IMG/VR virus record: IMGVR_UViG_3300035698_022433
From: an uncultured virus (IMG/VR IMGVR_UViG_3300035698_022433)
Taxonomy: Duplodnaviria > Heunggongvirae > Uroviricota > Caudoviricetes
Direction: 5' to 3' (one strand)
Length of the DNA stretch: 20,000 nucleotides
The position numbers and the translations under genes were made by a program. The notes beneath the pieces are model-generated. The model saw nothing but the letters and a program-made list of their open reading frames with translations. It did not search any database and was not told where the DNA came from. Below are positions 3,793 through 18,457 of this stretch, one piece after another; within the stretch, counting starts at the first letter, position 1, and every line of letters starts with the position of its first letter.

Positions 3793-4062
3793 ATGAAAGT
3801 TCAATACGTAGAAAACGATATTAATTCTGGAATGTATCTTCTTAGAAATGGTAATCCTGATATAACAAATCTATATAAAGTTTGTTGGACAAATAAAAAA
3901 GAATATTGTTTGGTGTCAATGACAGATGGATGGATTGATGTCTATAAATCAAAAGCTGATTTAGTAAATCAATTAAATGATGATGACAATGGATATATAC
4001 CAATTGATATGATTACGTTAATTGACATGTTAAGATGCAAAGTACGAAATGAACTATCTTAA
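3793..4062 (+). CDS. hypothetical protein
   Basis: GAGGT SD; last ORF before a promoter. Confidence 0.55.
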   Translation: MKVQYVENDINSGMYLLRNGNPDITNLYKVCWTNKKEYCLVSMTDGWIDVYKSKADLVNQLNDDDNGYIPIDMITLIDMLRCKVRNELS

Positions 4063-4067
4063 TGGTA

Positions 4068-4081
4068 GAAAAGTTTAAATA
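4068..4081 (+). promoter_or_regulatory. archaeal BRE-TATA promoter of the first tRNA unit
   Basis: GAAAAG-TTTAAATA about 25 nt before a structured RNA and tRNA-Leu. Confidence 0.6.
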
Positions 4082-4189
4082 CTATTTCTTACTTATATTT
4101 ATTATATGACAGCAAAAAACCTACTCAGTTTATCGAGTTTGCGTTCCTTGCGGAACCTTTTCATTTGCTAGTCATATAACTATTTTTAT

Positions 4190-4315
4190 GCCAACGTACC
4201 CAAGTTAGGACGACGGGGCCAGACTTAAGTGTTTATTTTAAGGGTTATACTCAAATCCTATCGGAGATATCTGGTGTGGGTAGCTGCCTCACAGGTTCAA
4301 ATCCTGTCGTTGGCA
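4190..4315 (+). tRNA. trnL: tRNA-Leu(TAA) with 39-nt intron (4230-4268) at 37/38
   Basis: Acceptor GCCAACG/CGTTGGC; anticodon stem CCAGA/TCTGG; long variable arm; TTCAAAT T-loop; relaxed BHB. Confidence 0.85.
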
Positions 4316-4375
4316 TAAGTTTTGAACATTGATTGTTATATTAATAAAGAAGGTTTGGAAATTGAAAAATGTAAT

Positions 4376-4456
4376 GCCAACGTAGTCAAGTGGTCTAAGA
4401 CGACGGGTTTAGGACCCGTGCGTAGGCAATCGTCGGTTCAAATCCGTCCGTTGGCA
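4376..4456 (+). tRNA. trnL: tRNA-Leu(TAG)
   Basis: Cloverleaf; ACGGG-TT TAG GA-CCCGT. Confidence 0.92.
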
Positions 4457-4599
4457 CTATGAAAATAAAACAAACCTAAGATGAGCAACGGGAAGTTGCG
4501 TGTCTTAGGAAATGTATATGCGTAGACATAGTGGAAAAAAGTATTATGCAAGAAAGTTCAATCAACAAAGACGAAAATTGGTTAAAGAAATAAACAAAA

Positions 4600-4685
4600 G
4601 CAGGAGTGGCAGAGTGGTCTATCGTCACGGGGTGCTAACCCGATGAATCATTGAGATTGCGTCCGTTCGAATCGGACCTCCTGCG
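4600..4685 (+). tRNA. trnS: tRNA-Ser(GCT)
   Basis: GCAGGAG/CTCCTGC acceptor, G73, long variable arm. Confidence 0.88.
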
Positions 4686-4688
4686 TAG

Positions 4689-5363
4689 GTGAATATCATG
4701 CGTCAATGGCGAAGATATAAAAGTACATATCGGATAAAGCATCCACAGTATTACATTAAAGGAAAACGCAACCTCACTCGTCAAGAGGAACGCACTCTCT
4801 TTGGTGGTACAGTTACTGTTACTGAGAAGATGGATGGTGCCAACACTGGTCTATTCAAAAAGAACGACAAGATGTTCCTACAAAAACGCGGCAGCCTCGT
4901 CGACGATAGTCATCCACAATTTAAGTTCTTCAAAAATCAATGGTTTTGGGACAACTACGAAAAGCTCGAACAACTCCCCGACAACGCAGTAACGTATGGT
5001 GAATTAATGCGCTGCACTCACACAATCCACTACGACAAACTCCCGGATTGGTGGTTGGTCTTTGATATCTACGATTTACAAAAACATCAATATCTTCCTT
5101 GGCATGAAGTAGCAAGAATCTGTTACGACATTGGATTGTCAACTGTACCACACATATTCACTGGTAGTTGTATGGACAGACCGACGATATCAGAAATAAT
5201 GCCAATTGAATCTATATACGGCAACAGGGCAGAAGGAATAGTAGTAAAGAATTACAAAAAACAAATGAGAGGAAAAGTAGTTCATCCCGAATTTATAAAA
5301 GACCCTAGTTTCGATAAACATTGGTCTAGCAGAACTGCAACATTTAATAAATTGGAGAGGTGA
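4689..5363 (+). CDS. RNA ligase family protein (Rnl2-like adenylation domain)
   Basis: TEKMDGAN, YGEL, FDI and EGIVVK motifs; start could be ATG 4698 after GGTGA. Confidence 0.85.
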   Translation: MNIMRQWRRYKSTYRIKHPQYYIKGKRNLTRQEERTLFGGTVTVTEKMDGANTGLFKKNDKMFLQKRGSLVDDSHPQFKFFKNQWFWDNYEKLEQLPDNAVTYGELMRCTHTIHYDKLPDWWLVFDIYDLQKHQYLPWHEVARICYDIGLSTVPHIFTGSCMDRPTISEIMPIESIYGNRAEGIVVKNYKKQMRGKVVHPEFIKDPSFDKHWSSRTATFNKLER

Positions 5364-5444
5364 CCGAGCACGGTTTATGGTGGGCGCCTTGAGAGCGTCA
5401 GTGTAGTAAAAGCTACACCAGCGGTTCAAATCCGCTTCTCTCCG
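5354..5444 (+). tRNA. trnS: tRNA-Ser(TGA)
   Basis: GGAGAGG/TCTCTCC acceptor; GGCGC-CT TGA GA-GCGTC; long variable arm. Confidence 0.92.
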
Positions 5445-5445
5445 T

Positions 5446-5757
5446 ATGAAAAACCAAAACAGAGCAAAGTTCAGAGAATCCGTATTCAAACGGGACAATA
5501 ACAAATGTGTAGTTTGTTCTGAGAAAGCAGTTGATGCGCATCATTTAATTGAAAGACGATTATGGAAAGAACCATCTGAACAAGGCGGATACATAGTAGA
5601 TAATGGAGTATCACTTTGTTCACAACATCATATAGATGCAGAAAAAAATATCATATTACCAAAAACACTGAGAGAATATGCTGGTATAAAGAAGATAGTT
5701 TTACCATTAGGTTTTGATGAAACAAAGGAATATAATAAATGGGGAAAACTTATTTAA
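5446..5757 (+). CDS. HNH endonuclease
   Basis: RDxxxCxxC...DAHH...NGVSLCxxHH. Confidence 0.85.
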   Translation: MKNQNRAKFRESVFKRDNNKCVVCSEKAVDAHHLIERRLWKEPSEQGGYIVDNGVSLCSQHHIDAEKNIILPKTLREYAGIKKIVLPLGFDETKEYNKWGKLI

Positions 5758-5804
5758 GCCCTTTACCATTCTTTTTTATGCTTGGGGGCAACTTGGTTTA
5801 CCAT

Positions 5805-5885
5805 TGACCTGTATGAAAATATGAACCCACATCTATCCCAATATCAAAGGGATGTTCTATTCAATTAAGCTATACCATACAGGTC
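5805..5885 (-). pseudogene. degenerate tRNA-Ile(GAT)-like element
   Basis: Minus strand: acceptor GACCTGT/ACAGGTC+A, D-arm-like TAGCTTAATTGAATAGAAC, TCCC..GAT..GGGA arm, GTGGGTTCA T-arm; 6-nt insertion after the acceptor strand and a weak T-stem. Confidence 0.5.
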
Positions 5886-5892
5886 TACTGGT

Positions 5893-5907
5893 AAAAACAT
5901 TTAAATA
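5893..5907 (+). promoter_or_regulatory. BRE-TATA promoter of SRP RNA (possibly bidirectional)
   Basis: AAAAACA-TTTAAATA ending about 22 nt before 5929. Confidence 0.6.
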
Positions 5908-5928
5908 TACCATTGTCTTTCGCTATTT

Positions 5929-6239
5929 AGATGCAGAATAGACTGGGGAGTTTGGTGTTCCCTTTGCACAAATCGCCAATAGTGGGTCGAATCCAAAGGG
6001 CAGTGTACGACTCCCTTTTGACTTCAACGTTAAACAATGATGATTCGTCCCTCGGAATCTAAGTCGTTGGCTATGTTAAATCGGAAGATTTAATAACCTT
6101 CATTATTAGATAAATCGGGCGAGGCACGGAAGTGAGCAGCCTTAATCTAAACTATAGGTGTTCAAGGGTCTGCGGATTTGAGAATAGTGCTGATTATCAA
6201 TTGGATAGTACGATATTCACCTGCGGAGTTTCTGCGTCT
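5929..6239 (+). ncRNA. ffs: archaeal-type signal recognition particle (7S) RNA, about 311 nt
   Basis: Terminal helix AGATGCAGAA/TTCTGCGTCT; Alu-domain helices with complementary loops TTGGTG/CGCCAA; helix 6 with GGAA loop (6069-6098); helix 8 AGG-CAC-GGAA-GTG-AGCA SRP54-binding motif (loop 6128-6131). Confidence 0.88.
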
Positions 6240-6284
6240 TTATAGTAAGGAAAACTTTTAATAAACTAAGTCCTATATCTGTTT

Positions 6285-6410
6285 ATGAAAAAACGAACCG
6301 AGTGCGAAGTCTATTCCCGAGTTGTTGGTTATCTTCGTCCTGTTAATCAATGGAACCGCGGGAAACAACAAGAATTTAAGGATAGAAAGGCTTTTAGAAT
6401 AAAAAAGTAA
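6285..6410 (+). CDS. stand-alone NrdD C-terminal glycyl-radical domain mini-protein (41 aa)
   Basis: MKKRTECEVYSRVVGYLRPVNQWNRGKQQEFKDRK carries the class III RNR RVxGY glycyl-radical motif; TATA-like TTTTAATA at 6256-6263. Confidence 0.85.
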   Translation: MKKRTECEVYSRVVGYLRPVNQWNRGKQQEFKDRKAFRIKK

Positions 6411-6440
6411 ATTCCTATGTTTTAAAGTATTAATTATTTA

Positions 6441-6454
6441 GAAAGATTTATATA
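6441..6454 (+). promoter_or_regulatory. BRE-TATA promoter
   Basis: GAAAGA-TTTATATA about 25 nt before ATG 6479 (leaderless). Confidence 0.6.
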
Positions 6455-6478
6455 TTACTATATGTATATTGTTTATAA

Positions 6479-6661
6479 ATGAAAAGTAGTAATGTATATT
6501 TGATATTTCTAGTAGCATGTATTATTCAGTATATAACGTTAGTAACAAGTTTTGTGCAAAGTACAGATTATTATACTACAGTAGCACGTATAGGAATAAC
6601 AAGTGTGTTAATGGGAGTTAGTGTATATTTTCATATAACGAGAAAAAGCATTGGTGATTAA
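6479..6661 (+). CDS. small membrane protein (2 TM)
   Basis: Two hydrophobic segments. Confidence 0.55.
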   Translation: MKSSNVYLIFLVACIIQYITLVTSFVQSTDYYTTVARIGITSVLMGVSVYFHITRKSIGD

Positions 6662-7312
6662 ATGAATGAAAAGTATAACATTGAAGGATTAGCTAAAGTT
6701 GCAAAAAAAATTGTGTCATCTTGCGCACAACATATGCCAATGATACATTTAGTATCAAAGGACAATGAAGTAACTATTTGTGGACTTGGTTTTGATAGTG
6801 ATGAAGCAAAACATAAAATGTTAGATATGTTTAGGAAAAAAGTACAAGACGAAAAGATACCTCATTATTTTGTAATTATAGAAGGATGGCTCGGCAACAA
6901 TGTTCACATTCGGCCAAGCCGCGACTTTGAAAGAAGAGAAGCATTAATCATTTGTGAATTCAAAGATACAATGGAACGTAAAACAATCATAATGCCGTTT
7001 ACTAAAGAAGACAAAAAAATAATATGGGAAGAAGAAATATCACTTGTTGATTCAGAACAATATAACATGTGGGACTTCTATCGCGAAGACGTATCAGCTG
7101 AAATGCATGAGAAACACCGCAGAGAAGCTTTGTTAAAAGAGTTTAGAGAAACAGATGTTAAAGATGCTTGGGATAAAACAATTGAGCAATATAAAAAAGA
7201 AACTGGTAAAGACCTACCACCAAGCTTTAATATAAAAAGGACAAGGGAAACGATTGAAAGGATGATTAATGAAGGTAGGGTTTCAAAGAGAGTTAACAGG
7301 ATAGATAAATGA
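6662..7312 (+). CDS. hypothetical protein (216 aa)
   Basis: GGTGA SD; long ORF. Confidence 0.7.
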   Translation: MNEKYNIEGLAKVAKKIVSSCAQHMPMIHLVSKDNEVTICGLGFDSDEAKHKMLDMFRKKVQDEKIPHYFVIIEGWLGNNVHIRPSRDFERREALIICEFKDTMERKTIIMPFTKEDKKIIWEEEISLVDSEQYNMWDFYREDVSAEMHEKHRREALLKEFRETDVKDAWDKTIEQYKKETGKDLPPSFNIKRTRETIERMINEGRVSKRVNRIDK

Positions 7313-7363
7313 AAGTTGAAGACGGAGTTGTAATAGTAGGACGAAGAGAACTTAAAGAGATAA

Positions 7364-7576
7364 ATGATGAACACAGAAATCGATATCCCTGATTGGTTAA
7401 TACAGTTGAATCAATATGATACTGTTATCTTTTTCATAATGTCAATTGTTGGTGTGTTTTTAATCATACATAGTTTGCGAATGAAATGTTCTGAGTGTGG
7501 ATTTGTCGTGTTCTTAACAGGTTGTAGTGCATTAATACTTGGTGGAATTGGCCTAATAATCTTTAGTTTAGAGTAA
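7364..7576 (+). CDS. small membrane protein (2 TM)
   Basis: Two hydrophobic segments flanking CSEC. Confidence 0.55.
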   Translation: MMNTEIDIPDWLIQLNQYDTVIFFIMSIVGVFLIIHSLRMKCSECGFVVFLTGCSALILGGIGLIIFSLE

Positions 7577-7589
7577 TAATTAGACCATA

Positions 7590-7602
7590 GAAAGTTATAT
7601 AA
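7590..7602 (+). promoter_or_regulatory. BRE-TATA promoter of the main tRNA cluster
   Basis: GAAAG-TTATATAA. Confidence 0.55.
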
Positions 7603-7812
7603 ACCTCTAATTACATATTATTTATTATCCAGTGTTCTATTTATCTGGGTTAGTGATATTATGTCTATATGTCAACCGCGACAACATTGGCAGAAAATGC
7701 CTTACATTTTTAATAGAATAGTCGCGGGAACGGATGTAGAGACAACCGAATAATTTTTGGGGCCTTTCTCAGACGGTAGTCGAAGGGTCTCTTTTCTATT
7801 AAATTTTTTGTT

Positions 7813-7883
7813 GCCGGTATAGCACAATGGCAGTGCGGGGAGCCTGTAACTCTCTGATGGGTGTTCGACTCGCTCTATCGGCT
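7813..7883 (+). tRNA. trnT: tRNA-Thr(TGT)
   Basis: GCCGGTA/TATCGGC acceptor, U73; GGGAG-CC TGT AA-CTCTC. Confidence 0.85.
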
Positions 7884-7971
7884 TAAGTGGAATAACGACT
7901 TAGAGGGACGTTATCGACGTTCGCAATATCTAACATATTATATACTATGTTTGTATACCAAATGTGAAACA

Positions 7972-8388
7972 GTGACTAAATACAAAATAATAAGAATGAA
8001 AGATGGAACAAGAAAAAGAGAACATAGATTAATTATGGAAGAGCATTTAGGAAGAAAATTAAGAAAAAATGAAATTGTTCATCACAAAAATGGAAATACT
8101 TTGGATAACAGGATAGAAAATCTTGATTTACTTACTTCGTCAGAACATGGAAGGAAACATTATAAACAAAATGATGTGTATAAATTTAACAAAAAAGATA
8201 TAAAAAGAGGAGCTACTACGTCAAATATAAAAAGACGTGTAAAGTGTACTGGTGATTATTATCAATGTTCTATGTGCAAAAAAATGATACACAAAAGCAA
8301 GTTTAATACAAAGAAATGGCGGTGGAATGGTTTGCAAACAATATGTAAAGTATGTACAAAAAAATACTATAAGAAATATTATAGATAA
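7972..8388 (+). CDS. HNH homing endonuclease with C-terminal Zn finger
   Basis: [14 protein letters not shown]...[16 protein letters not shown]; two CxxC pairs; start moved to GTG 7972 because the track start lies inside tRNA-Thr. Confidence 0.85.
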
Positions 8389-8389
8389 C

Positions 8390-8462
8390 GCGCTTGTACG
8401 ATAATCTGGCAGTCTTACACCCTTCCAAGGTGAAAGTGAGTGTTCGAATCACTCCTGGCGCA
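8390..8462 (+). tRNA. trnG: tRNA-Gly(TCC)
   Basis: GCG...CGC+A acceptor; CACC-CT TCC AA-GGTG. Confidence 0.85.
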
Positions 8463-8587
8463 TCAGCGGTAGCTTAGCCTGGTAAAGCTCTAAATACTCT
8501 AAACGCTTATCTCCTTAACGGGCAGTACAGTTAAGAGTTACTTCGACTTGTAATCGAGAGACCTGGGTTCGAATCCCAGCCGTTGAT
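8463..8587 (+). ncRNA. tRNA-Thr(TGT)-like RNA with a ~50-nt Y-RNA-like stem inserted between D and anticodon arms
   Basis: Acceptor TCAGCGG/CCGTTGA, full D-arm, TCGA-CT TGT AA-TCGA, perfect T-arm; insert ACTCTAAACGCTTATCTC...GCAGTACAGTTAAGAGTTACTTC. Confidence 0.7.
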
Positions 8588-8590
8588 TTT

Positions 8591-8712
8591 GCAGGGGCAA
8601 CATAAACTCTATACGTTTATCTCTGGAAACAGCAGTGTAGTAGAGAGTTACTTCGGTAAAAAACAAATCTGTAAAATTTGTCTAAGGGAGTTCGAACCTC
8701 CCACCCCCTGCA
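8591..8712 (+). ncRNA. tRNA-Tyr(GTA)-like RNA whose D-arm is replaced by the same Y-RNA-like stem
   Basis: Acceptor GCAGGGG/CCCCTGC+A; CAAAT-CT GTA AA-ATTTG; GGGAG-TTCGAAC-CTCCC; insert AACTCTATACGTTTATCTC...GCAGTGTAGTAGAGAGTTACTTC. Confidence 0.65.
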
Positions 8713-8716
8713 AAAT

Positions 8717-8788
8717 AGTCCCATAGGATAATGGAAGTCCGCCTGGCTTTGAACCAGGCAGAGGTCGGTTCAACTCCGCCTGGGACTG
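8717..8788 (+). tRNA. trnQ: tRNA-Gln(TTG)
   Basis: AGTCCCA/TGGGACT (A1:U72 as in archaeal Gln); CCTGG-CT TTG AA-CCAGG. Confidence 0.9.
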
Positions 8789-8864
8789 TGTGCCGTAGTC
8801 TAGCACGGAGGCAGGCAACGGGCTCATAACCCGTGGTACGAAAGTTCAAATCTTTCCGGCGCAA
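8789..8864 (+). tRNA. trnM: tRNA-Met(CAT), initiator-like
   Basis: Three consecutive G:C pairs in the anticodon stem (ACGGG-CT CAT AA-CCCGT); first pair is U:A rather than A:U. Confidence 0.8.
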
Positions 8865-8868
8865 TCTT

Positions 8869-8941
8869 GGGGACGTGGTCTAATTGGAATGATAGCGGTG
8901 TTGCATACCGTTGACTGCTGGTTCGAATCCTGCCGTCTCCA
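8869..8941 (+). tRNA. trnA: tRNA-Ala(TGC)
   Basis: G3:U70 identity pair; TGC anticodon. Confidence 0.9.
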
Positions 8942-9017
8942 CTGGTAGCTAAACAAAAAATTAGTTGTATGCTGTGTTCACAGCTTGAACATACAAACTG
9001 ATTATTAGCTACTCTAT

Positions 9018-9088
9018 GCTTTCGTGTTTCAACGGTAGAATACCAGGCTGTCTACTTGGTGATTCGGGTTCGATTCCCGGCGAGGGCG
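9018..9088 (+). tRNA. trnD: tRNA-Asp(GTC)
   Basis: Cloverleaf; G73; CCAGG-CT GTC TA-CTTGG. Confidence 0.9.
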
Positions 9089-9137
9089 TATGTTGGAAGA
9101 GAAACGTAGCAGGACTTACGACCTGCATAAACATAGT

Positions 9138-9229
9138 ACTCCTGTAGTGTAGTGGACAATCATGTCTGGCTTTCAAATCTCATTAAATGAAGAGACCAGG
9201 CGACGTGGGTTCAATTCCCGCCAGGAGTG
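9138..9229 (+). tRNA. trnE: tRNA-Glu(TTC) with 19-nt BHB intron (9176-9194)
   Basis: CTTT/GAAG central helix with two 3-nt bulges. Confidence 0.88.
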
Positions 9230-9261
9230 TCGCACTGAAAAGTGCAATAGGTGAAAGAGCC

Positions 9262-9582
9262 ATGAAAGAAAAATACATAGCGGTCTTAGAAGATCGAGAA
9301 GAAGAAAGAGTCCTTAAAACAGAGGATGGAAAAGAAGTTGAAATAAAATACGAACATTACCCAAGCGTTGTCGGACCACGAAGTGTTTACACTGGTCTTC
9401 CTATTTGGGTTGGAAAAACTGAAGCAAACGGTTGCTTAGACGGCGGAACATCAATTGATGTTGAAGCGCGTTGCTGGACACATGAACCATATTCATATAG
9501 TCAAGCGCGCGTGGTATCAACTGGTCGTCTATTAAAACAACTTGGACTTCCAACAAAACTAGCAGAACAAGTAAAGGATTAA
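9262..9582 (+). CDS. hypothetical protein (106 aa)
   Basis: AGGTGA SD before ATG 9262; the track start overlaps tRNA-Glu. Confidence 0.65.
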   Translation: MKEKYIAVLEDREEERVLKTEDGKEVEIKYEHYPSVVGPRSVYTGLPIWVGKTEANGCLDGGTSIDVEARCWTHEPYSYSQARVVSTGRLLKQLGLPTKLAEQVKD

Positions 9583-9595
9583 ATCCTTTACTTAT

Positions 9596-9669
9596 GGGTT
9601 CGTAGAACAATCTGGGAGTTCGCCGTCTTGAAGGGGCGGATGTTGTAGTTTCAAATACTACCGAACCCA
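9596..9669 (+). tRNA. trnF: tRNA-Phe(GAA)
   Basis: GGGTTCG/CGAACCC acceptor; CCGTC-TT GAA GG-GGCGG. Confidence 0.85.
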
Positions 9670-9673
9670 CTAC

Positions 9674-9765
9674 ACCCATGTATTCTAGTCCGGTTAAGAA
9701 GGCACCCTTACAAACCAATTGGTTAAGATAGGTGTTTATCAGCGGTTCAAATCCGCTCATGGGTA
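9674..9765 (+). tRNA. trnV: tRNA-Val(TAC) with 17-nt BHB intron (9713-9729)
   Basis: Textbook BHB: CTTA/TAAG helix, 3-nt bulges, ACC/GGT outer helix. Confidence 0.92.
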
Positions 9766-9767
9766 CT

Positions 9768-9983
9768 ATGTCAAAGACATACAAATTAATTCAATACAAA
9801 AACGGTCAACCTATATACAGTAGACATCTCAGAAGAGATGCACCATATCAATGGTTCAGAAAAGACCATCCACTTGCACGAAGAGCATACTACAAATCAT
9901 TTAGAATGAAGCAGAAGCAATATCTTAAGAAGTTCAATGATTGCATTAAATTTGTAAGAACTAATGGTTGGTTAACCCATTAA
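9768..9983 (+). CDS. small basic hypothetical protein (71 aa)
   Basis: ATG 2 nt after tRNA-Val; K/R/Y-rich. Confidence 0.6.
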   Translation: MSKTYKLIQYKNGQPIYSRHLRRDAPYQWFRKDHPLARRAYYKSFRMKQKQYLKKFNDCIKFVRTNGWLTH

Positions 9984-9984
9984 T

Positions 9985-10073
9985 GATTCCGTGGTCGAAT
10001 TGGTAAGGCATTGGGCTGCAACATAAAAAATGCGGATACCCAAAGACTGAGTGTTCAAATCACTCCGGAATCT
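9985..10073 (+). tRNA. trnC: tRNA-Cys(GCA) with 16-nt BHB intron (10022-10037)
   Basis: U73; CTGC/GCGG central helix. Confidence 0.88.
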
Positions 10074-10074
10074 T

Positions 10075-10149
10075 GAGCCTGTAGTTCAGCTAGGTCAGAA
10101 TACCGGACTCTTAATCCGTAGGTCGCGAGTTCAAATCTTGCCAGGCTCA
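10075..10149 (+). tRNA. trnK: tRNA-Lys(CTT)
   Basis: Cloverleaf; CT CTT AA loop. Confidence 0.92.
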
Positions 10150-10151
10150 CT

Positions 10152-10225
10152 GAATGGGTAGCGTAGCTAGGTCACGCGTTCGGCTTTTAACCGGATACAG
10201 GCGGGTTCAAATCCTGTCCCATTCA
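10152..10225 (+). tRNA. trnK: tRNA-Lys(TTT)
   Basis: Cloverleaf; CT TTT AA loop. Confidence 0.9.
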
Positions 10226-10231
10226 CTAATT

Positions 10232-10416
10232 GGGGCCATATCCCAGTGGTCTAAGGAGCCTGGCTCATATCAGCAAGATGGCAAATTCCCGATGGAGCGT
10301 ACAAAAAACAGTAAGCCTGGTTTGGTAAGTCGTCGTGGCAAACCTCTCCAACGCGCAACGAAAGCCATCCGCTGGGGGAAACCAGGTATTCGCAGGTTCG
10401 AATCCAGCTGGCCCCA
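10232..10416 (+). tRNA. tRNA(CAT), elongator Met or Ile2, with 111-nt intron (10270-10380)
   Basis: GGGGCCA/TGGCCCC+A; CCTGG/CCAGG anticodon stem; near-BHB with CAGC/GCTG outer helix. Confidence 0.82.
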
Positions 10417-10419
10417 CTA

Positions 10420-11064
10420 ATGAAAATATGCGCAATGTCGGATTTACACCGACACCAAATAGATATTCCAAAATGCGATGTATTAGCGATAGCAGGCGAC
10501 ATCAGTGGATTTGATGATGCCAAATGGTTTGGTGAAATCTTTCTTCCATACTTAAAAGAACAAAAAAATAAATACGACATTTGTCTTCTTGTCTTTGGAA
10601 ACCACGATGATATGATACATGCCGCGAATGTTTCTTTTCCGCTTGCTTCAGATTATGTAAAAATTCTTACCAACAAGGAATTTACATATAAGGGTGTAAA
10701 ATTCTTTGGTTCACCATACTGCAAATACTCAGAAAAAATAGTTGACAGCATCAATGCATTCGAGGAACCATTCCTCAAAACGTTATTCAATGACATTCCG
10801 GAAGACACCGATGTACTAATCACTCATTCACCACCATATGGATTTGGTGATACTGTAATAAATCAATCATACCATCTTGGCAGTACATCACTTACAGAAC
10901 GAGTTCGAATAGTAAAACCAAAAATTCATATCTTTGGTCACATTCATACAGGTAAAAAATATACAAAAGAGAATGGCACAAGCTATTACAATGTATCAAT
11001 ATTAAATGATAATTATGAACTAACATACAAACCAACAATAATCAATTATGTAACAGCCACATAG
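10420..11064 (+). CDS. calcineurin-like metallophosphoesterase
   Basis: SDLH, AGD, GNHD, THSPP and GHIH motifs. Confidence 0.92.
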   Translation: MKICAMSDLHRHQIDIPKCDVLAIAGDISGFDDAKWFGEIFLPYLKEQKNKYDICLLVFGNHDDMIHAANVSFPLASDYVKILTNKEFTYKGVKFFGSPYCKYSEKIVDSINAFEEPFLKTLFNDIPEDTDVLITHSPPYGFGDTVINQSYHLGSTSLTERVRIVKPKIHIFGHIHTGKKYTKENGTSYYNVSILNDNYELTYKPTIINYVTAT

Positions 11065-11134
11065 GTCCGTGGTCGATTGGTAATGATACCCTCCTGATAA
11101 GTGGGAGAAGAGAGTTCGATTCTCTCCGGACCTA
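11063..11134 (+). tRNA. trnI: tRNA-Ile(GAT)
   Basis: AGGTCCG/CGGACCT+A; CT GAT AA loop. Confidence 0.88.
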
Positions 11135-11136
11135 CT

Positions 11137-12015
11137 ATGATGAAAAAGTATTATTGTAATTACTGTTGTGAATGGATAGAATGTAAAAATGGAAAATCTT
11201 TTGGTGGTCATAAATCAAATTGCAAAGATAATCCAATAAGAGAAGAAAAGAATAAAAAGATAAGTGAAGCAAATAAACGGAACCATCCAAAAAAAGCTTA
11301 CAAATTAATTTGCAAAAAGTGTAAAAAACAATATACAATTGAAATGACAGAGTATGTCTATGGTAACAATAAATATAGGAAACATTGTTCAAGAAAATGT
11401 GCGAACTCACATGTTCAGTCTTTAACACAAAATAATGCTAGAAGAAAAAAACTACTTGGACGAAACACACATGTTGTTGTATTCATAACAAGAGAATGTA
11501 AAATTTGTAAAACATTGTTTGTTGTCAGAAAAGGTAATGATAGAAAGTGTTGCACAAGAAGTTGCTCAGTAAAGTATGCAATGTATGTTGCACAAAAAAG
11601 AAGAAATTTATCATGGTCTGAAATTCATTTAAAATCATTTAAAAATGGTAGAAAACCAACTGGTAAATATTATGTAGAGTGGTTTACTTACGGCCACATT
11701 AAAGTTCAAGGTACTTATGAACTTCGTACGTGTTATATTTTAGATGCTATGAAAGAAATGGGAGAAATAACAGATTGGAAATACACGTTTGACAGATTCC
11801 CATATATTGGTTTTGATGGAAGAGAACATAGTTATTTTCCAGATTTTAAAGTATTTGGAAATGATACATATTATATTGAAGTTAAGGGTTTATTAAACGA
11901 TATTGATAAGGTTAAATGGAAATCAGTTAGAGACAATGAATACAGATTAGAAGTTTGGGATTTAGATGTAATAAAAAATAATGAAAGCTGTTATGGAATA
12001 ACCACCTGTCCTTAG
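11137..12015 (+). CDS. Zn-finger plus PD-(D/E)XK (TnsA-like) putative homing endonuclease
   Basis: Repeated CxxC...CSxxC modules; YFPDF...YIEVKG; true start ATG 11137. Confidence 0.8.
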   Translation: MMKKYYCNYCCEWIECKNGKSFGGHKSNCKDNPIREEKNKKISEANKRNHPKKAYKLICKKCKKQYTIEMTEYVYGNNKYRKHCSRKCANSHVQSLTQNNARRKKLLGRNTHVVVFITRECKICKTLFVVRKGNDRKCCTRSCSVKYAMYVAQKRRNLSWSEIHLKSFKNGRKPTGKYYVEWFTYGHIKVQGTYELRTCYILDAMKEMGEITDWKYTFDRFPYIGFDGREHSYFPDFKVFGNDTYYIEVKGLLNDIDKVKWKSVRDNEYRLEVWDLDVIKNNESCYGITTCP

Positions 12016-12077
12016 TGTTAACAGAAGCACATCGAGCTGTAGACTCGAAAGAATCGGCGCAAATCCGGTAGGACAGA
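12006..12077 (+). tRNA. trnY: tRNA-Tyr(GTA), archaeal type
   Basis: C1:G72, A73, short variable loop; TCGAG-CT GTA GA-CTCGA; atypical T-loop CGCAAAT. Confidence 0.88.
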
Positions 12078-12079
12078 CT

Positions 12080-12715
12080 ATGAAAATAAGTATGTGGATA
12101 CCTGAAACAAAAAATCCTGTTTGGGTACAGGACTTCATAAATATCGAAATGATACAAGCAGGAAATATAAAGTCAAAAACTACAAGAGAATCTGTAGTTG
12201 ATGGTCTGTATATTGCACAAAGACTTGCAAAACCTGGAATGTGTGTTTACGTAGAAGGAAGAGACTGTGATTTGGATACTTATCGAGGAAAAGAGTTTAA
12301 GTATCACTGCGGAAGAGAGTTTATCACACCAGAAAAGGAAAATGATTACACCTAACTACTCGTATGCTTTGATGCCAATGACCTCTATATAGGTGAATTC
12401 AATGGAAGAGATATCCACGAGCTATATCATAAAAATTCAAACGTAGCACGAAAACATGATGCTGGAGGACAGTCTCAACGTCGATTTGAAAGAGGACGAG
12501 ATGAGTCGTTAAAACATTGGTTCAAAGAAATAGTTGGTTTGGTTAACGATTACAAAAATAGAAGGCCAATATATCTTGGATGTAATGGTATGTACAAAAA
12601 TAGAATAAAAATCAAAGACGTAGTCTTTACAAAAAGTGTATCCATAGACGATAATTGTCTATGGGAGTTAATGGAGGTATCAAGAAATGTTCAAACCGAA
12701 AAGATTGAAGGCTAA
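12080..12715 (+). CDS. prf1: aRF1/eRF1 peptide chain release factor homolog (N+M domains) with in-frame TAA at 12353-12355
   Basis: NIKS (12164-12175) and YHCGREF (YxCxxxF) before the stop; same frame after it gives RKHDAGGQSQRRFER (GGQ 12464-12472). Confidence 0.88.
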
Positions 12716-13130
12716 AGATGCAAAATACTGTACAAATTGTATAGATGAAGAATTAGAGCCACATGTAAAGAGAATAGACTTTGCAATGAAGACCAGAACG
12801 TTTATCATAGACTTTTGGTTTTGTCCTGAATGTGGTGCAACGTACTACTTCAAGGATTGGACTAGTATAGTTGAAAAGAATGAAGTACCAATGAGCGGTC
12901 ATAAAATGTTGAATAAGGAAACTGGAAAATACGAACATATCACTGACCCAAAAAACCTACCGGCAACTAGCTGGGCAGAAACGATGGTATGTGCTGGAGA
13001 CGAGAAAAGATTGGAAGCTCTTTGGGAAAAACGTGGAGCTGAAAAAGAAGCAGTACTGAAGGAGTTGGAGAAGACAGGTAAGTGGGATGTTGAAGAGTAT
13101 TACAAAGTAAAGAAAAGAATGGGCTTGTAG
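12687..13130 (+). CDS. hypothetical Zn-ribbon protein
   Basis: CTNC and CPECG; GGAGGT SD. Confidence 0.65.
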   Translation: MFKPKRLKAKDAKYCTNCIDEELEPHVKRIDFAMKTRTFIIDFWFCPECGATYYFKDWTSIVEKNEVPMSGHKMLNKETGKYEHITDPKNLPATSWAETMVCAGDEKRLEALWEKRGAEKEAVLKELEKTGKWDVEEYYKVKKRMGL

Positions 13131-13193
13131 CACAATCGGAAATGCGATGGCCTTCGAAGCCATAGACTGGGCGTTCGAGTCGCCCCAGGCCCG
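13121..13193 (+). tRNA. trnR: tRNA-Arg(TCG)
   Basis: ATGGC-CT TCG AA-GCCAT. Confidence 0.9.
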
Positions 13194-13194
13194 T

Positions 13195-13314
13195 ATGAAA
13201 AGATTCGTATGTGAAATAACATGTCCTGTTTGCAAACAAGATTTCATAATGACAGGACCAGAAAGAATTTGTCTTCAATGCAGGAATAAAATAAAAAATG
13301 GGAACATGGTGTAA
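13195..13314 (+). CDS. 39-aa Zn-ribbon mini-protein
   Basis: MKRFVCEITCPVCKQDFIMTGPERICLQCRNK: two CxxC pairs filling the gap between two tRNAs. Confidence 0.55.
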   Translation: MKRFVCEITCPVCKQDFIMTGPERICLQCRNKIKNGNMV

Positions 13315-13373
13315 TAGGCAACATATCTGCCTCCAGAGCAGAAGACTTGTGAGTTCGATTCTTACTGTTCCCT
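13300..13373 (+). tRNA. trnW: tRNA-Trp(CCA)
   Basis: TCTGC-CT CCA GA-GCAGA; no intron. Confidence 0.88.
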
Positions 13374-13376
13374 TAT

Positions 13377-13449
13377 GGGCTTGTGGTGTAACTTGGTATC
13401 ACCGGGGTTTTGGATACCTCAAATTCAGGTTCAAATCCTGGCTAGCCCA
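13377..13449 (+). tRNA. trnP: tRNA-Pro(TGG)
   Basis: GGGGT-TT TGG AT-ACCTC. Confidence 0.86.
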
Positions 13450-13451
13450 CT

Positions 13452-13874
13452 ATGCAAACACAAAAATTTCAAATAAAACCGATAGAGGATATAATAAGAG
13501 ATTATTCAGCGCTAAAGAAAATATATCCTTTAAAAATGGAAGTGATAGTGATAACTAGAAACAAATACGATTATAGTTTTACTCCATTGTTAGAACTTGA
13601 CTTTGATGATATCACAAGTGAATACAGATCGACTGAAACAATATCAATTAACAAAGAACATATTAAAAAAATTAAAGAAAAGATTCCAGAAATTAAAGCT
13701 GCTGATACTGTATTTGTATGTTGTGATGCTGGACTATCTCGCAGCCCAGCAGTGGCGAAAGCATTATCACACTATCTACATGACATTCAATCATTCAATT
13801 ACTTAGCATACAGATATCCATTTGCAAACAAAGATGTGTTCGAAACACTCCTAATTGGATTAAAGGAAGGATAG
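13452..13874 (+). CDS. CX5R (tyrosine/dual-specificity-like) phosphatase
   Basis: CDAGLSRSPAVA P-loop. Confidence 0.8.
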   Translation: MQTQKFQIKPIEDIIRDYSALKKIYPLKMEVIVITRNKYDYSFTPLLELDFDDITSEYRSTETISINKEHIKKIKEKIPEIKAADTVFVCCDAGLSRSPAVAKALSHYLHDIQSFNYLAYRYPFANKDVFETLLIGLKEG

Positions 13875-13940
13875 CTGAGTCTGGCCTAAAGCATCGGACT
13901 GTTAATCCGATGATCGTCGGTTCAAATCCGACTCCTTCCG
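13865..13940 (+). tRNA. trnN: tRNA-Asn(GTT)
   Basis: TCGGA-CT GTT AA-TCCGA; G73. Confidence 0.92.
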
Positions 13941-13942
13941 CT

Positions 13943-14039
13943 GCGATAGTAGTTTAGTGGTCTAGAATTCCAGACTGTGAAAAATCATAACATGATTTGC
14001 AGAACTCTGGAGACCCGAGTTCGAATCTCGGCTATCGCC
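13943..14039 (+). tRNA. trnH: tRNA-His(GTG) with 24-nt BHB intron (13981-14004)
   Basis: C73; CTGT/GCAG helix, AAATCAT/ATGATTT outer helix; G-1 not encoded. Confidence 0.9.
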
Positions 14040-14043
14040 CTTT

Positions 14044-14116
14044 GGGTGTATAGTATAATCGGATAGAATAATGGACTTCTAATCCATAGATGCGGGTTCG
14101 ATTCCTGCTACGCCCG
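14044..14116 (+). tRNA. trnR: tRNA-Arg(TCT)
   Basis: ATGGA-CT TCT AA-TCCAT. Confidence 0.9.
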
Positions 14117-14141
14117 TTCTACCAAAGTATTAAAAATAGAT

Positions 14142-14469: not shown

Positions 14470-14781
14470 ACGAAATTAATAGAAATAGAAAATGGTAAAA
14501 TAACAGAATTACTATGCTATATATGCGAACGCGAGTTCAATACAAACCAAGGCAGATTTCCAGTCGGCGGACCACAACAACATCATCAGCCACCAAAGCA
14601 ATATCACAAACGAAAAAACTACGAAGAAAAGACAATTAATGTATGTCAAAGTTGCCAACGTCAAATTCATGCATTATTTGAAAACAAAGAATTAAAATCA
14701 ATAACCGTTCAACAATTAAGAAATCACCAAGCAATCAAAAAATGGATTAAATGGATAAATAAGGGTAGGAATATGAAATGA
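14470..14781 (+). CDS. small HNH-like protein (103 aa) with ACG at the start position
   Basis: CYIC...HH.PPK...CQSCQRQIHALFENKEL...WIKW; GGTGATTAA precedes ACG; not in ORF track. Confidence 0.65.
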   Translation, partial: TKLIEIENGKITELLCYICEREFNTNQGRFPVGGPQQHHQPPKQYHKRKNYEEKTINVCQSCQRQIHALFENKELKSITVQQLRNHQAIKKWIKWINKGRNMK

Positions 14782-14990
14782 AAAAAAGACGTAATTTTTT
14801 AATAATACGCGAAGGAAAAGAAAGAGAGCGTGCAATAAACATCAATGATATTTCGTATTTGAGTAAAGTAGAAGGTGGAACAAAAATCTATACATGTGAT
14901 GGAACAAATTTTGAGATTGAAGAAAGCATTGAAGAAATTCTTAGTGTAATCAATGGCAGGAAAGGAAAACGAGATGAAAAGACGACGTAA
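14778..14990 (+). CDS. FlbD-like small protein, tandem copy 1
   Basis: MKKRRNFL...ININDI...TKIYT.DG..F.IEESIEEIL. Confidence 0.65.
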   Translation: MKKRRNFLIIREGKERERAININDISYLSKVEGGTKIYTCDGTNFEIEESIEEILSVINGRKGKRDEKTT

Positions 14991-15168
14991 TTTTCTTTTG
15001 ATATCAATAGGCGATGGACATGATAGGGCTTTAAATATTAACAATATAACAGTTGTAAAAAAAAATGAAAATGGCACAAGAATTATTACGGCTTGTGACA
15101 ACAGTTATAATGTTGAGGAAAGTTATGAAGAAGTACTTAATATGATTATTGGTAAGGAAGAGAAATGA
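14974..15168 (+). CDS. FlbD-like small protein, tandem copy 2
   Basis: MKRRRNFL...LNINNI...YNVEESYEEVL; start set by homology to the other copies. Confidence 0.65.
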   Translation: MKRRRNFLLISIGDGHDRALNINNITVVKKNENGTRIITACDNSYNVEESYEEVLNMIIGKEEK

Positions 15169-15368
15169 AAAAACGACGTAACTTTTTAATATTTGATGAT
15201 AAGACTAAAACAGTTATAAACATAAGCAACATAACATGTATGAGAGAATATAGTGGAAGAACAAAATTTTATATGACTGATGACAGTAGCTACGATGTTG
15301 AAGAGAAATTAGAAGATGTTCTTAACGCAATTTTCGGTAAGGTGAAAAAACGTGAAAAAACGCCGTAA
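15165..15368 (+). CDS. FlbD-like small protein, tandem copy 3
   Basis: MKKRRNFL...INISNI...YDVEEKLEDVL. Confidence 0.65.
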   Translation: MKKRRNFLIFDDKTKTVINISNITCMREYSGRTKFYMTDDSSYDVEEKLEDVLNAIFGKVKKREKTP

Positions 15369-15543
15369 TTTTTTAGTAACTGAAAATTCTTATGGTAATA
15401 TAATAAATATAAATTATATAGAGCATGTTTCAGAATATGCTAAAGGTTCGAAAATTCGTACCAGTGGTGGTGTTGATTATTATGTTAATGAAAGTCCAGA
15501 AGAAATTCTCAATATAATTGTTGGTAGGAAAAAACATGACTGA
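15352..15543 (+). CDS. FlbD-like small protein, tandem copy 4
   Basis: GTG start after GGTGA; KKRRNFL...ININYI...YYVNESPEEIL. Confidence 0.65.
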   Translation: MKKRRNFLVTENSYGNIININYIEHVSEYAKGSKIRTSGGVDYYVNESPEEILNIIVGRKKHD

Positions 15544-15853
15544 TGATTTCAAAATATGTCCGAACTGTGGCAAAAAGTTTACAAAAGAAGAATATATGAA
15601 AGACCACAAACCAACACGCAGCGCAAAACAAGCGGAAGGATGGTGGCGACGACGAAAATACTGTTCATATGATTGTTCAACAAAGTTTTATACAAAGACA
15701 TTACAAGAACGTCAACAACAGGAAATAAAACAAAATCAAATGAAGTTTACTGCACCAATAAAAATATGGAAAGTTGAGAAAGGTGAACCAATTGAAATTA
15801 AAGTATTACTGTATGGTGATTGGAAAATATGTAAGGTGAAAAATGGAAATTAA
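15536..15853 (+). CDS. Zn-finger protein
   Basis: CPNCGKKF...RKYCSYDC. Confidence 0.65.
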   Translation: MTDDFKICPNCGKKFTKEEYMKDHKPTRSAKQAEGWWRRRKYCSYDCSTKFYTKTLQERQQQEIKQNQMKFTAPIKIWKVEKGEPIEIKVLLYGDWKICKVKNGN

Positions 15854-16049
15854 ACTTGGCTTTGGAACAATAATACTTGGAATCTTTATACTGCTCGCGG
15901 CAGTTGTATTAGCAAAACCAGAGTATGCCGGGGTAGCATGGTCTCTTGGTATTGGGTTGCTTTCGTTAATAGGTTCAATATGTATTATTGGAATCATAGC
16001 TGTAGTTATAATAGTTGTCGTTGTATTAATATTAATATTTTGGAGTTAG
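15843..16049 (+). CDS. small membrane protein
   Basis: Almost entirely hydrophobic; GGTGA SD. Confidence 0.6.
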   Translation: MEIKLGFGTIILGIFILLAAVVLAKPEYAGVAWSLGIGLLSLIGSICIIGIIAVVIIVVVVLILIFWS

Positions 16050-17623: not shown

Positions 17624-18457
17624 ATGAATCGATTCGAGGAACTAAAGAAAGTGATTGCAAACAAACAATCGCACTATACATCGTACAATATCAAAAAACG
17701 CAGCGGCGGCAACCGCCGTATCACAACTCCGGATAAGTTTCTAAAGCGAATACAACAAGAAATACTTTTTGACATTCTTGACTTTGTTGATATAGATAAG
17801 CATGCTATGGGTTTTGTCAAAGGCCGCGGCATCTACACAAATGCAAAGAAACATCTCAACTCCGCTTGTATCGTAAAACTTGATTTAAAAGATTTCTTTC
17901 CATCTATTAAGAAAGAAATGATAATAAAATCACTTGAGGGAAAGGTCAGCGCACCACATGCCATTGCCGAACTGACAACAATAAACAATTCTTTACCACA
18001 GGGAGCACCAACCAGTCCGTGTCTTTCAAATATTGTTTGTATTGAACTCGATAAGAAATTAACAAACCTTGCGGCAAAGTTTCATGCACGATATACTCGT
18101 TACGCCGATGACATCACGTTCAGTAGCAAAACAAATAAACAATTAGATAAAATCATTCCGAAAACACATTCATTTGTTCTGCACCAAGGTTTTGATATCA
18201 ATTATAAGAAGACACAAGTAATGCGCCGCGGTGGTCGCCAAACAGTAACCGGACTTACCGTTAATGATGCTGTTAATGTTCCGCGAACACGTGTTAGAAA
18301 CTTACGTGCTGAAATACACAAAAAGAAATATACAGGCATATCACTTGACGAACGCGGTCGTCTCGCTGGTGTTTCATCATTCATTTATGGCGCAAACAAA
18401 AAGAAAGGTCAAAAATTCTATGATGACCTTGATAAGCTTCCAATACTTAAACGGTGA
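17624..18457 (+). CDS. retron-type reverse transcriptase (277 aa)
   Basis: KKRSGGNR, NAKKH (region X), DLKDFFPSI, LPQGAPTSP, YADD, VTG (region Y). Confidence 0.93.
   Translation: MNRFEELKKVIANKQSHYTSYNIKKRSGGNRRITTPDKFLKRIQQEILFDILDFVDIDKHAMGFVKGRGIYTNAKKHLNSACIVKLDLKDFFPSIKKEMIIKSLEGKVSAPHAIAELTTINNSLPQGAPTSPCLSNIVCIELDKKLTNLAAKFHARYTRYADDITFSSKTNKQLDKIIPKTHSFVLHQGFDINYKKTQVMRRGGRQTVTGLTVNDAVNVPRTRVRNLRAEIHKKKYTGISLDERGRLAGVSSFIYGANKKKGQKFYDDLDKLPILKR

Follow-up and report, generated by a model that had tools for sequence, protein, structure and literature searches.

We found a structurally intact archaeal-type signal recognition particle (SRP; 7S) RNA gene at positions 5931-6237 (+ strand) of a 20,000-nucleotide (nt) stretch of DNA, hereafter the window, from the uncultured virus record IMGVR_UViG_3300035698_022433 (Caudoviricetes) of IMG/VR, and this gene recurs in several samples. 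Upon running Rfam cmscan over the whole window, we obtained a match to the family Archaea_SRP (RF01857) with 139.8 bits at a gathering score of 96.5 (E = 2.2e-32), and the alignment spans model positions 1-317 of 317 without truncation. The gene is 307 nt long with a GC content of 43%, and an nhmmer profile of 39 cellular archaeal SRP RNAs likewise detected it over its full length (72.6 bits). The strong hit to the Rfam archaeal SRP model confirms the full-length archaeal SRP RNA of ~311 nt that an initial annotation of the sequence had placed at 5929-6239, right to within two bases at each end. Furthermore, the RNA contains a helix 6 with a GNAR tetraloop, the SRP19 site, as is characteristic of the archaeal SRP RNA family, whereas bacterial SRP RNAs lack helix 6.

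The RF01857 alignment, together with the minimum free energy (MFE) fold, resolved the individual domains of the RNA. Its 5' part (5931-5995, +) comprises one strand of helix 1 and the Alu domain with helices 2-4, as read from the alignment and the sequence. By manual count on the alignment, helix 1, which joins the 5' and 3' ends, forms ~8 of 9 pairs, helix 2 forms 4 of 5, and helix 3 forms all 7, while the two Alu loops TTGGTG (5951-5956, helix 3) and CGCCAA (5973-5978, helix 4) are complementary to each other with one G-U pair. Helix 6 (6064-6102, +), the established binding site of SRP19 in this family and the expected one here, was located by both the alignment and the MFE fold, and its GGAA tetraloop (6083-6086) closes nine inner pairs, with the outer eight pairs being poorly formed. 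Helix 8 (6106-6150, +), the expected site of the SRP54 M domain, carries a second GGAA tetraloop (6128-6131), and its GAGG, GGAA, and GAGCAG segments agree with the consensus with one non-canonical pair. The MFE fold of the RNA reproduces the terminal helix, the helix 6 hairpin, and the tip of helix 8. All of the features that had been noticed beforehand, i.e., the paired termini, the complementary Alu loops, the helix 6 GGAA, and the helix 8 loop, are thus present in the RF01857 alignment. The most divergent parts are the Alu domain, with its short helix 4 and an altered U-turn region, and helix 5, while the S-domain sites are conserved.

The same DNA was observed repeatedly in metagenomes. 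Parts of the region 4000-8000 were contained in 13 DNA runs, 12 of which are labelled as salt lake or sediment metagenomes, while no RNA run was among those listed. The four best salt-lake runs, from four study codes, yielded many long pieces with zero differences to the window. Two identical pieces bridge the flank into the SRP RNA (3951-6041 in run X1 and 5779-6058 in run X3), and because both run from the flank into the RNA, the 5' junction is not an assembly chimera. Run X1 also contained one contig (depth 5) that joins 5963 to 6112 and skips or replaces 148 nt comprising the 5' strand of helix 5 and helix 6. It may be derived from another SRP-like RNA of that community, one with only the conserved ends in common.

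We compared the RNA with its cellular counterparts in two archaeal phyla, named here after a Woesearchaeota and a Methanosarcinales metagenome-assembled genome (MAG). RF01857 matched in 95 of 101 genomes of the Woesearchaeota-MAG phylum (89 above the cut-off; full-length hits of 77-172 bits, one genome with fragments only) and in 98 of 101 genomes of the Methanosarcinales-MAG phylum (nearly all 152-255 bits). The 139.8 bits obtained for the window are hence normal for an AT-rich lineage, because cellular SRP RNAs there score 77-172 bits. The notion that the gene is normally single-copy and chromosomal held in this sample, with one match each in 94 of the 95 and 96 of the 98 genomes with a hit; only one genome (G163) has two full-length copies, which lie on different contigs. 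The cellular RNAs are mostly 263-278 nt long in the Woesearchaeota-MAG phylum (three of 309-320 nt) and nearly all 310-317 nt long in the Methanosarcinales-MAG phylum. Only with the latter, ~313-nt type did nhmmer produce a near-full-length alignment to the window RNA (best 33.5 bits), and SRP RNAs of the Woesearchaeota-MAG phylum reached at most 19.6 bits, most hits covering the helix 8 region only. The window RNA is 46-57% identical to 12 cellular SRP RNAs, compared to 56-63% for cellular pairs within and between the two phyla. A BLAST search with the RNA island against 802 genomes, 401 from each of the two phyla, returned no hit for the SRP RNA; it did return ~80% identity over whole tRNA genes, a few pieces of 34-43 nt at 88-94%, and a 72-77% match for a piece of NrdD. 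In AT-rich archaea, the GC content of the SRP RNA is 0.39-0.48 at a locus value of 0.26-0.34, comparable to the 0.43 versus 0.35 in the window. Given the 46-57% identity, the lack of a BLAST hit, and a GC content as in AT-rich archaea, the window SRP RNA is not a recent capture from any genome sampled.

The SRP RNA gene is embedded in a tRNA island (4189-14117, +; Rfam and ARAGORN). Across the whole window, Rfam called 20 tRNA genes and ARAGORN 19, or 26 when introns were allowed; all 20 Rfam tRNAs are also ARAGORN calls, four of them only with introns allowed. The Rfam set covers 18 amino acids, and ARAGORN alone adds Ser and Tyr, which completes the set of 20 amino acids. Three loci among the 26, all on the + strand and called by ARAGORN only, are doubtful (8462-8588, 8642-8711, and 10232-10417): one carries a 31-nt insert away from the canonical position, another is a 70-nt tRNA-Tyr of poor quality, and the third contains an insert of 111 nt. 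These loci could be false calls or else tRNAs whose introns are non-canonical. The substantial open reading frames (ORFs), the longest of 388 amino acids (aa), are all on the + strand, and the GC content is ~35% overall and 29-42% per kb. The window encodes two genes of the RNA-ligase family, two HNH nucleases, one within 200 nt upstream and one 1.6 kb downstream of the SRP RNA, a DHH phosphoesterase (phrog_4771, 4.3e-51), a metallophosphoesterase, and a radical SAM protein. A Pfam scan that covered 42 ORFs (28 + 14) found no ribosomal, SRP19, SRP54, integrase, or other housekeeping domain. The gene content around the SRP RNA, with a full tRNA complement and RNA-repair-type enzymes, marks a mobile, virus-like element, and the description of a virus-like tRNA island given in the initial annotation is borne out by the single coding strand, the tRNA set, the virus-like genes, and the lack of recognizable cellular DNA in the 20 kb. 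The search for SRP19 and SRP54 that it had proposed located neither protein among the 42 ORFs.

Several features suggest an archaeal host, among them the SRP RNA type with helix 6, the tRNA introns, and a TATA box. The TATA-like box, TTTAAATA (5900-5907, +), is positioned 23 nt upstream of the SRP RNA start, in agreement with the earlier claim that the gene has its own TATA box, and is a candidate archaeal promoter by its motif position. TTTAAATA also precedes ORF 6479 by 24 nt and ORF 14176 by 21 nt. At the other end, the 3' strand of the terminal helix is followed by TCTTTAT (6222-6246, +), a weak terminator-like site defined by a consensus match only; the consensus scan found one such site where 0.6 were expected. 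Bacterial sigma-70 sites showed no excess (6 found at 6.6 expected). Five tRNAs (Leu-UAA, Glu, Val, Cys, and His), four of which are also Rfam hits, contain inserts of 16-29 nt at or beside position 37/38. The precursor of tRNA-His (13943-14040) folds as a textbook bulge-helix-bulge, with a 3-nt bulge, a 4-bp helix, a second 3-nt bulge, and an inner helix; tRNA-Cys (9985-10073) folds as a bulge-helix-loop, and Leu-UAA, Glu, and Val are ambiguous by MFE. Anticodon-loop introns of this kind are cut by the archaeal or eukaryal splicing endonuclease. As haloarchaeal proteomes are acidic, the median isoelectric point of 8.1 among the window proteins, only 4 of 37 of which are acidic, argues against a salt-in haloarchaeon as the host.

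Relatives of the element were searched for with the RNA-ligase-like marker gene of 388 aa (95-1261, +). It has 141 homologs, one of them annotated as PF09414, on contigs of up to 271 kb, and its closest large relatives in IMG/VR are 54-59% identical on contigs of 67-138 kb. In the 138-kb IMG/VR record among these (G001), the nearest large relative by this one marker, in which 36 of 73 ORFs of at least 180 aa were annotated, we found a large terminase (1.6e-86), a portal, a major head protein, a maturation protease, and a tape measure protein, as well as a tail fibre, a DNA polymerase, and a ribonucleotide reductase. From its terminase, portal, head, and tail gene matches, G001 is therefore a tailed virus, and by extension the window may belong to a tailed virus as well. 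Among 37 window proteins compared with the related loci, only the 388-aa gene is widely shared, and a small NrdD ORF recurs in four loci. Searching the phage collection with the whole window (megablast) or the SRP RNA (blastn) gave no match, and the reverse transcriptase of the window, used as a protein query, had no confirmed relatives in IMG/VR.

Neither genome bins nor a provirus flank led to the host. Because the marker family is widespread in bacterial chromosomes, it is not diagnostic of the host, and genome bins reached through the marker gene were set aside. The flank of the 'provirus' G002 (L131), beyond the provirus boundary given by IMG/VR, shows no change in strand or composition and contains phage-like genes, so it is not host DNA; the genes there code for a cytosine methylase, a GP88-family protein, a RadA/KaiC-like ATPase, and, adjoining the latter, a short XPF-type nuclease (17840-18469 of L131, +; ERCC4 4.6e-21 plus two helix-hairpin-helix motifs), an architecture characteristic of archaea and eukaryotes. 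L261 and L263, two contigs of 109.5 and 109.9 kb from a Woesearchaeota MAG and from a Daviesbacteria MAG of the Candidate Phyla Radiation (CPR), give one and the same partial match (52%) to the 388-aa protein and are probably related viral contigs binned with small-celled organisms.

We suggest, with moderate confidence in the reading as a whole, that this is a virus-borne SRP RNA that is transcribed by the host, associates with the SRP19 and SRP54 proteins of the host, and maintains targeting to the membrane in infected cells. The RNA is probably functional in association with host SRP19 and SRP54; since the window encodes neither protein, those of the host would be used. The carrier is most likely a large virus, and among these a tailed archaeal virus, or a virus-like extrachromosomal element of salt-lake communities, and the SRP RNA is part of an accessory island of stable-RNA genes, together with the tRNA set, RNA ligases, and phosphoesterases. 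In the proposed sequence of events, host RNA polymerase would transcribe the SRP RNA from its own TATA-type promoter, and the transcript would fold into the canonical rod with Alu and S domains, as the covariance-model match indicates. Its helix 6 and helix 8 sites would then bind host SRP19 and SRP54, and co-translational targeting of viral membrane proteins could be kept up when the SRP RNA of the host runs short, ceases to be produced, or is broken down. In parallel, the tRNA set and the RNA-repair enzymes would sustain translation. The initial annotation had likewise proposed that the RNA could replace a cleaved host RNA or redirect membrane targeting. A precedent is provided by complete or near-complete huge-phage records with bacterial small SRP RNAs, three of which lie beside tRNAs.

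A number of observations weigh against this reading. For the RNA itself, the z-score of the MFE fold is a modest -1.8, the alignment marks ~31 consensus pairs as non-canonical (manual count on its NC line), most of which belong to helix 5 and outer helix 6, and helix 4 is shrunk to ~3 pairs. No second copy was found: RF01857 matched in none of five related viral records, where the first-look filter may miss AU-rich copies, nhmmer detected no SRP RNA copy in the 94 related loci L079-L172, and Rfam searches of the 20 closest or longest metagenome loci revealed no RF01857 match and only four tRNAs; the viral lineage hence offers no conservation or covariation evidence for the RNA. The TTTAAATA motif is not enriched over the window (13 found at 7.6 ± 2.9 expected, with 11 of 200 shuffles reaching 13), so that its promoter role is putative. 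Furthermore, family scans of the window ORFs found no capsid, portal, or terminase genes within the 20 kb. The classification of the contig by capsid and terminase versus ribosomal genes, as initially envisaged, thus revealed nothing in the 20 kb that looks chromosomal and no viral hallmark gene. The records G001 and G003 have a single gene in common with the window, namely the marker (59% identity in G001), and the marker family also occurs in bacterial chromosomes at ~35% identity; for these two reasons, the viral assignment rests mainly on the gene content of the window itself. One locus with a 91% identical marker (L136) has unrelated DNA downstream, indicating that the island is strain-specific. 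Finally, the retron-type reverse transcriptase and the PDC-S10 family, both present in the window, are best known from bacteria.

Some of these observations would be expected if the SRP RNA and the tRNA genes were passengers, picked up from a host chromosome by illegitimate recombination or HNH shuffling and of no benefit to the virus. Indeed, the SRP RNA stands alone among the relatives retrieved, the island has a mosaic make-up and is specific to the strain, and HNH genes flank the SRP RNA within 200 nt on the upstream side and 1.6 kb on the downstream side. Against such an origin, all protein-binding motifs and the terminal helix are intact, the RNA has its own TATA-like box, no cellular relative exceeds 57% identity among the 12 compared and none was hit by BLAST in the 802 genomes, and the same sequence persists in four runs from four study codes, so we assign a low, though appreciable, probability to a passenger gene. 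We regard it as unlikely, too, that the RNA acts as a decoy or modulator, either competing for SRP19 and SRP54 or changing elongation arrest through its altered Alu domain, and thereby shuts down or rewires host targeting. While the conservation of the S-domain sites, combined with the strong divergence of the Alu domain and helix 5, would suit this role, and phage contigs with only the tip of a bacterial helix 8 fit protein titration better than full function, the window gene is a full-length copy whose terminal helix and Alu domain would be needless for a simple SRP54 sponge.

The window could also be cellular DNA, i.e., a chromosome fragment of a small AT-rich archaeon (e.g., of the DPANN group) with its ordinary single SRP RNA gene. 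This would account for the similar scores of AT-rich archaeal SRP RNAs and for the missing viral hallmark gene, and viral-looking contigs of ~110 kb were indeed binned into a Woesearchaeota MAG and a CPR MAG. Such an assignment has, in our view, a very small probability, given at least 20 tRNA genes for all amino acids on one strand within 10 kb, among HNH, reverse transcriptase, and RNA-ligase genes, the lack of any housekeeping domain in the 42 ORFs, and the length of 307 nt compared to mostly 263-278 nt in the Woesearchaeota-MAG phylum. We give next to no weight to an attachment-site copy, in which the element, like phage phiEf11 with the bacterial ffs gene, would integrate into the host SRP RNA gene and bring along a second copy of the part that it displaces: the gene is complete (model positions 1-317), has an upstream promoter-like box, and lies in the middle of the island and not at the end of an element, and the 42 ORFs yielded no integrase domain. 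The idea has some basis in the documented integration of a bacterial phage into ffs (PMC12540744) and in a few IMG/VR contigs that start inside an SRP RNA (L009, L346, and L364).

The immediate surroundings of the SRP RNA gene display a number of further features. Directly upstream (4689-5757, +) are an RNA ligase (4689-5363; PF09414, 6.9e-29), a tRNA-Ser (5353-5445), and an HNH nuclease (5446-5757). The family phrog_24030 (342 positions), in which HNH precedes the RNA ligase, corresponds here to two distinct ORFs whose order is inverted, its ligase part (135-340) at 4689-5363 and its HNH part (1-100) at 5446-5757, with the tRNA-Ser(UGA) between them. Directly downstream, a 41-aa mini-ORF (6285-6410, +) is a stand-alone C-terminal piece of NrdD with the glycyl-radical motif RVVGY (PF13597, 1.6e-11, profile positions 530-562 of 562). 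It has 78-84% identical matches at L106 1836-2096, L108 16431-16754, and L107 2-58, those in L106 and L108 being located within short ORFs of 86 and 107 aa as called, and the one in L106 lying directly upstream of the 388-aa gene. The mini-ORF could serve as a spare part for oxygen-cleaved NrdD, by analogy with GrcA for pyruvate formate-lyase. The protein collection contains a single relative of the downstream neighbor, ORF 6662-7312, apart from this ORF itself. The small membrane proteins and the lipoprotein that the initial annotation had noted nearby may correspond to two hydrophobic small ORFs close to the SRP RNA, at 6479-6661, with a lipobox-like LVAC motif recognized by eye, and at 7364-7576; a third hydrophobic small ORF (15843-16049) lies ~9.6 kb downstream.

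Farther along the window, the reverse transcriptase (17624-18457, +) matches phrog_2825 (1.8e-61), the NCBIfam retron St85 family (236.8 bits at a cut-off of 235), and many PADLOC retron reverse transcriptase models; a retron-type enzyme would be unusual on a putative archaeal virus. A diversity-generating retroelement was rejected, as no template or variable repeat was found near the gene. The metallophosphoesterase (10420-11064, +) matches the PADLOC candidate defence family PDC-S10 over its whole length (8.8e-51). Four tandem small paralogous ORFs at 14755-15543 (+), three of which start with MKKRRNFL, have repeated start regions of 40-50 nt at a spacing of ~190 nt; they showed no significant family match, with only two weak FlbD hits (E ~0.006) below the Pfam cut-off.

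SRP RNA genes were also found on other viral records. We took a census of IMG/VR with two helix-8 motif scans, which see only copies with those exact motifs; the exact 24-mer of the window's helix 8 had no match in IMG/VR. The first scan returned 78 loci, all of which were passed through Rfam and 13 of which contain an SRP RNA (8 bacterial small, 5 bacterial large, and no archaeal). The second, with a relaxed 3' end, returned 60 loci, 20 of which were passed through Rfam, namely 14 with any nhmmer hit to the 39-RNA archaeal profile and 6 low-GC loci, giving 5 bacterial small and no archaeal SRP RNAs; the remaining 40 had no nhmmer hit at E <= 1 to the profile of cellular archaeal SRP RNAs. In total, the 98 loci analyzed with Rfam contain 18 bacterial-type matches, of which 17 are distinct (L329 repeats L004). 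The large records with a bacterial SRP RNA include G006 (497 kb, 94% complete), G007 (372 kb), G008 (290 kb, 96%), and G009, which has 350 kb, terminal repeats, and an estimated completeness of 100% and contains SRP RNA model positions 23-67 only. Further records of this kind are L349, L362, and L386. Across the viral contigs of 101-497 kb (L002, L016, L025, and L047, which are G006-G009, and L349, L362, and L386), the gene is mostly next to tRNA genes, and some large viral contigs contain only the helix 8 tip of the bacterial RNA (model positions 23-67 or 24-66).

The full-text literature that we searched contained no report of a virus-encoded SRP RNA, supplementary non-coding RNA tables, which could list such hits, being outside the search, and no mention of bacterial SRP RNAs on large phage contigs. 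The terms SRP, 'signal recognition', and 4.5S have zero occurrences in the main texts of PMC7162821, PMC7824862, and PMC13282480. What appears to be new here is the carriage of a full-length archaeal SRP RNA copy by a virus, whereas the molecule itself belongs to a known family.

SRP RNA is a universal and normally single-copy housekeeping RNA. A full-length viral copy would suggest that it is limiting or attacked during infection, and the self-supplied viral parts of the translation apparatus, such as tRNAs, transfer-messenger RNA (tmRNA), and ribosomal proteins, would then extend to the membrane-targeting step. More tentatively, we put forward the doubtful but possible generalization that archaeal viruses can encode a complete SRP RNA of their own. 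If so, the targeting RNA would be contested in infection, as tRNAs are: nucleases of the virus or the host would destroy or deplete it, and a viral substitute would take over host SRP19 and SRP54 to the advantage of viral membrane proteins. Together with the bacterial SRP RNAs of huge phages, SRP RNA would then constitute a recurrent and so far undescribed class of viral takeover genes in two domains. Furthermore, a natural, highly diverged variant that is ~50% identical to the cellular forms and keeps the SRP19 and SRP54 sites could help to determine how much of the archaeal Alu domain and helix 5 an SRP RNA can do without.

Compared with known systems, the window RNA has in common with the RF01857 family the terminal helix 1, the Alu domain, the GNAR-capped helix 6, the helix 8 loops, and a size near 310 nt. 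It differs from the cellular members in that it lies on a virus-like contig in a tRNA island rather than on a chromosome, and in its shortened helix 4 and the many non-canonical pairs of helix 5. With phage phiEf11, whose attachment site lies within the bacterial ffs gene with a 27-nt core inside the host gene (PMC12540744), it shares the link between a virus and an SRP RNA gene, whereas the window differs in carrying the whole gene with a promoter-like box and no integrase seen in the 42 ORFs. Large phages and tRNA-rich archaeal tailed viruses similarly cluster stable RNAs of the translation apparatus in an accessory island, which in the window covers 20 amino acids. Huge phages carry many tRNAs and tmRNAs (PMC7162821), and a haloarchaeal virus has exceptionally many tRNA genes (PMC13532342); unlike in the window, SRP RNA is not among the RNAs mentioned in the searched text of those papers. 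A further parallel is provided by the bacterial SRP RNAs (RF00169) of large phage contigs (G006, G008, and G009), which likewise lie on viral records and often beside tRNAs. While these phage-contig RNAs are of the bacterial 4.5S type of ~95 nt, or only a helix 8 tip, and lack the Alu domain and helix 6, the window carries a complete archaeal 7S RNA of 307 nt.

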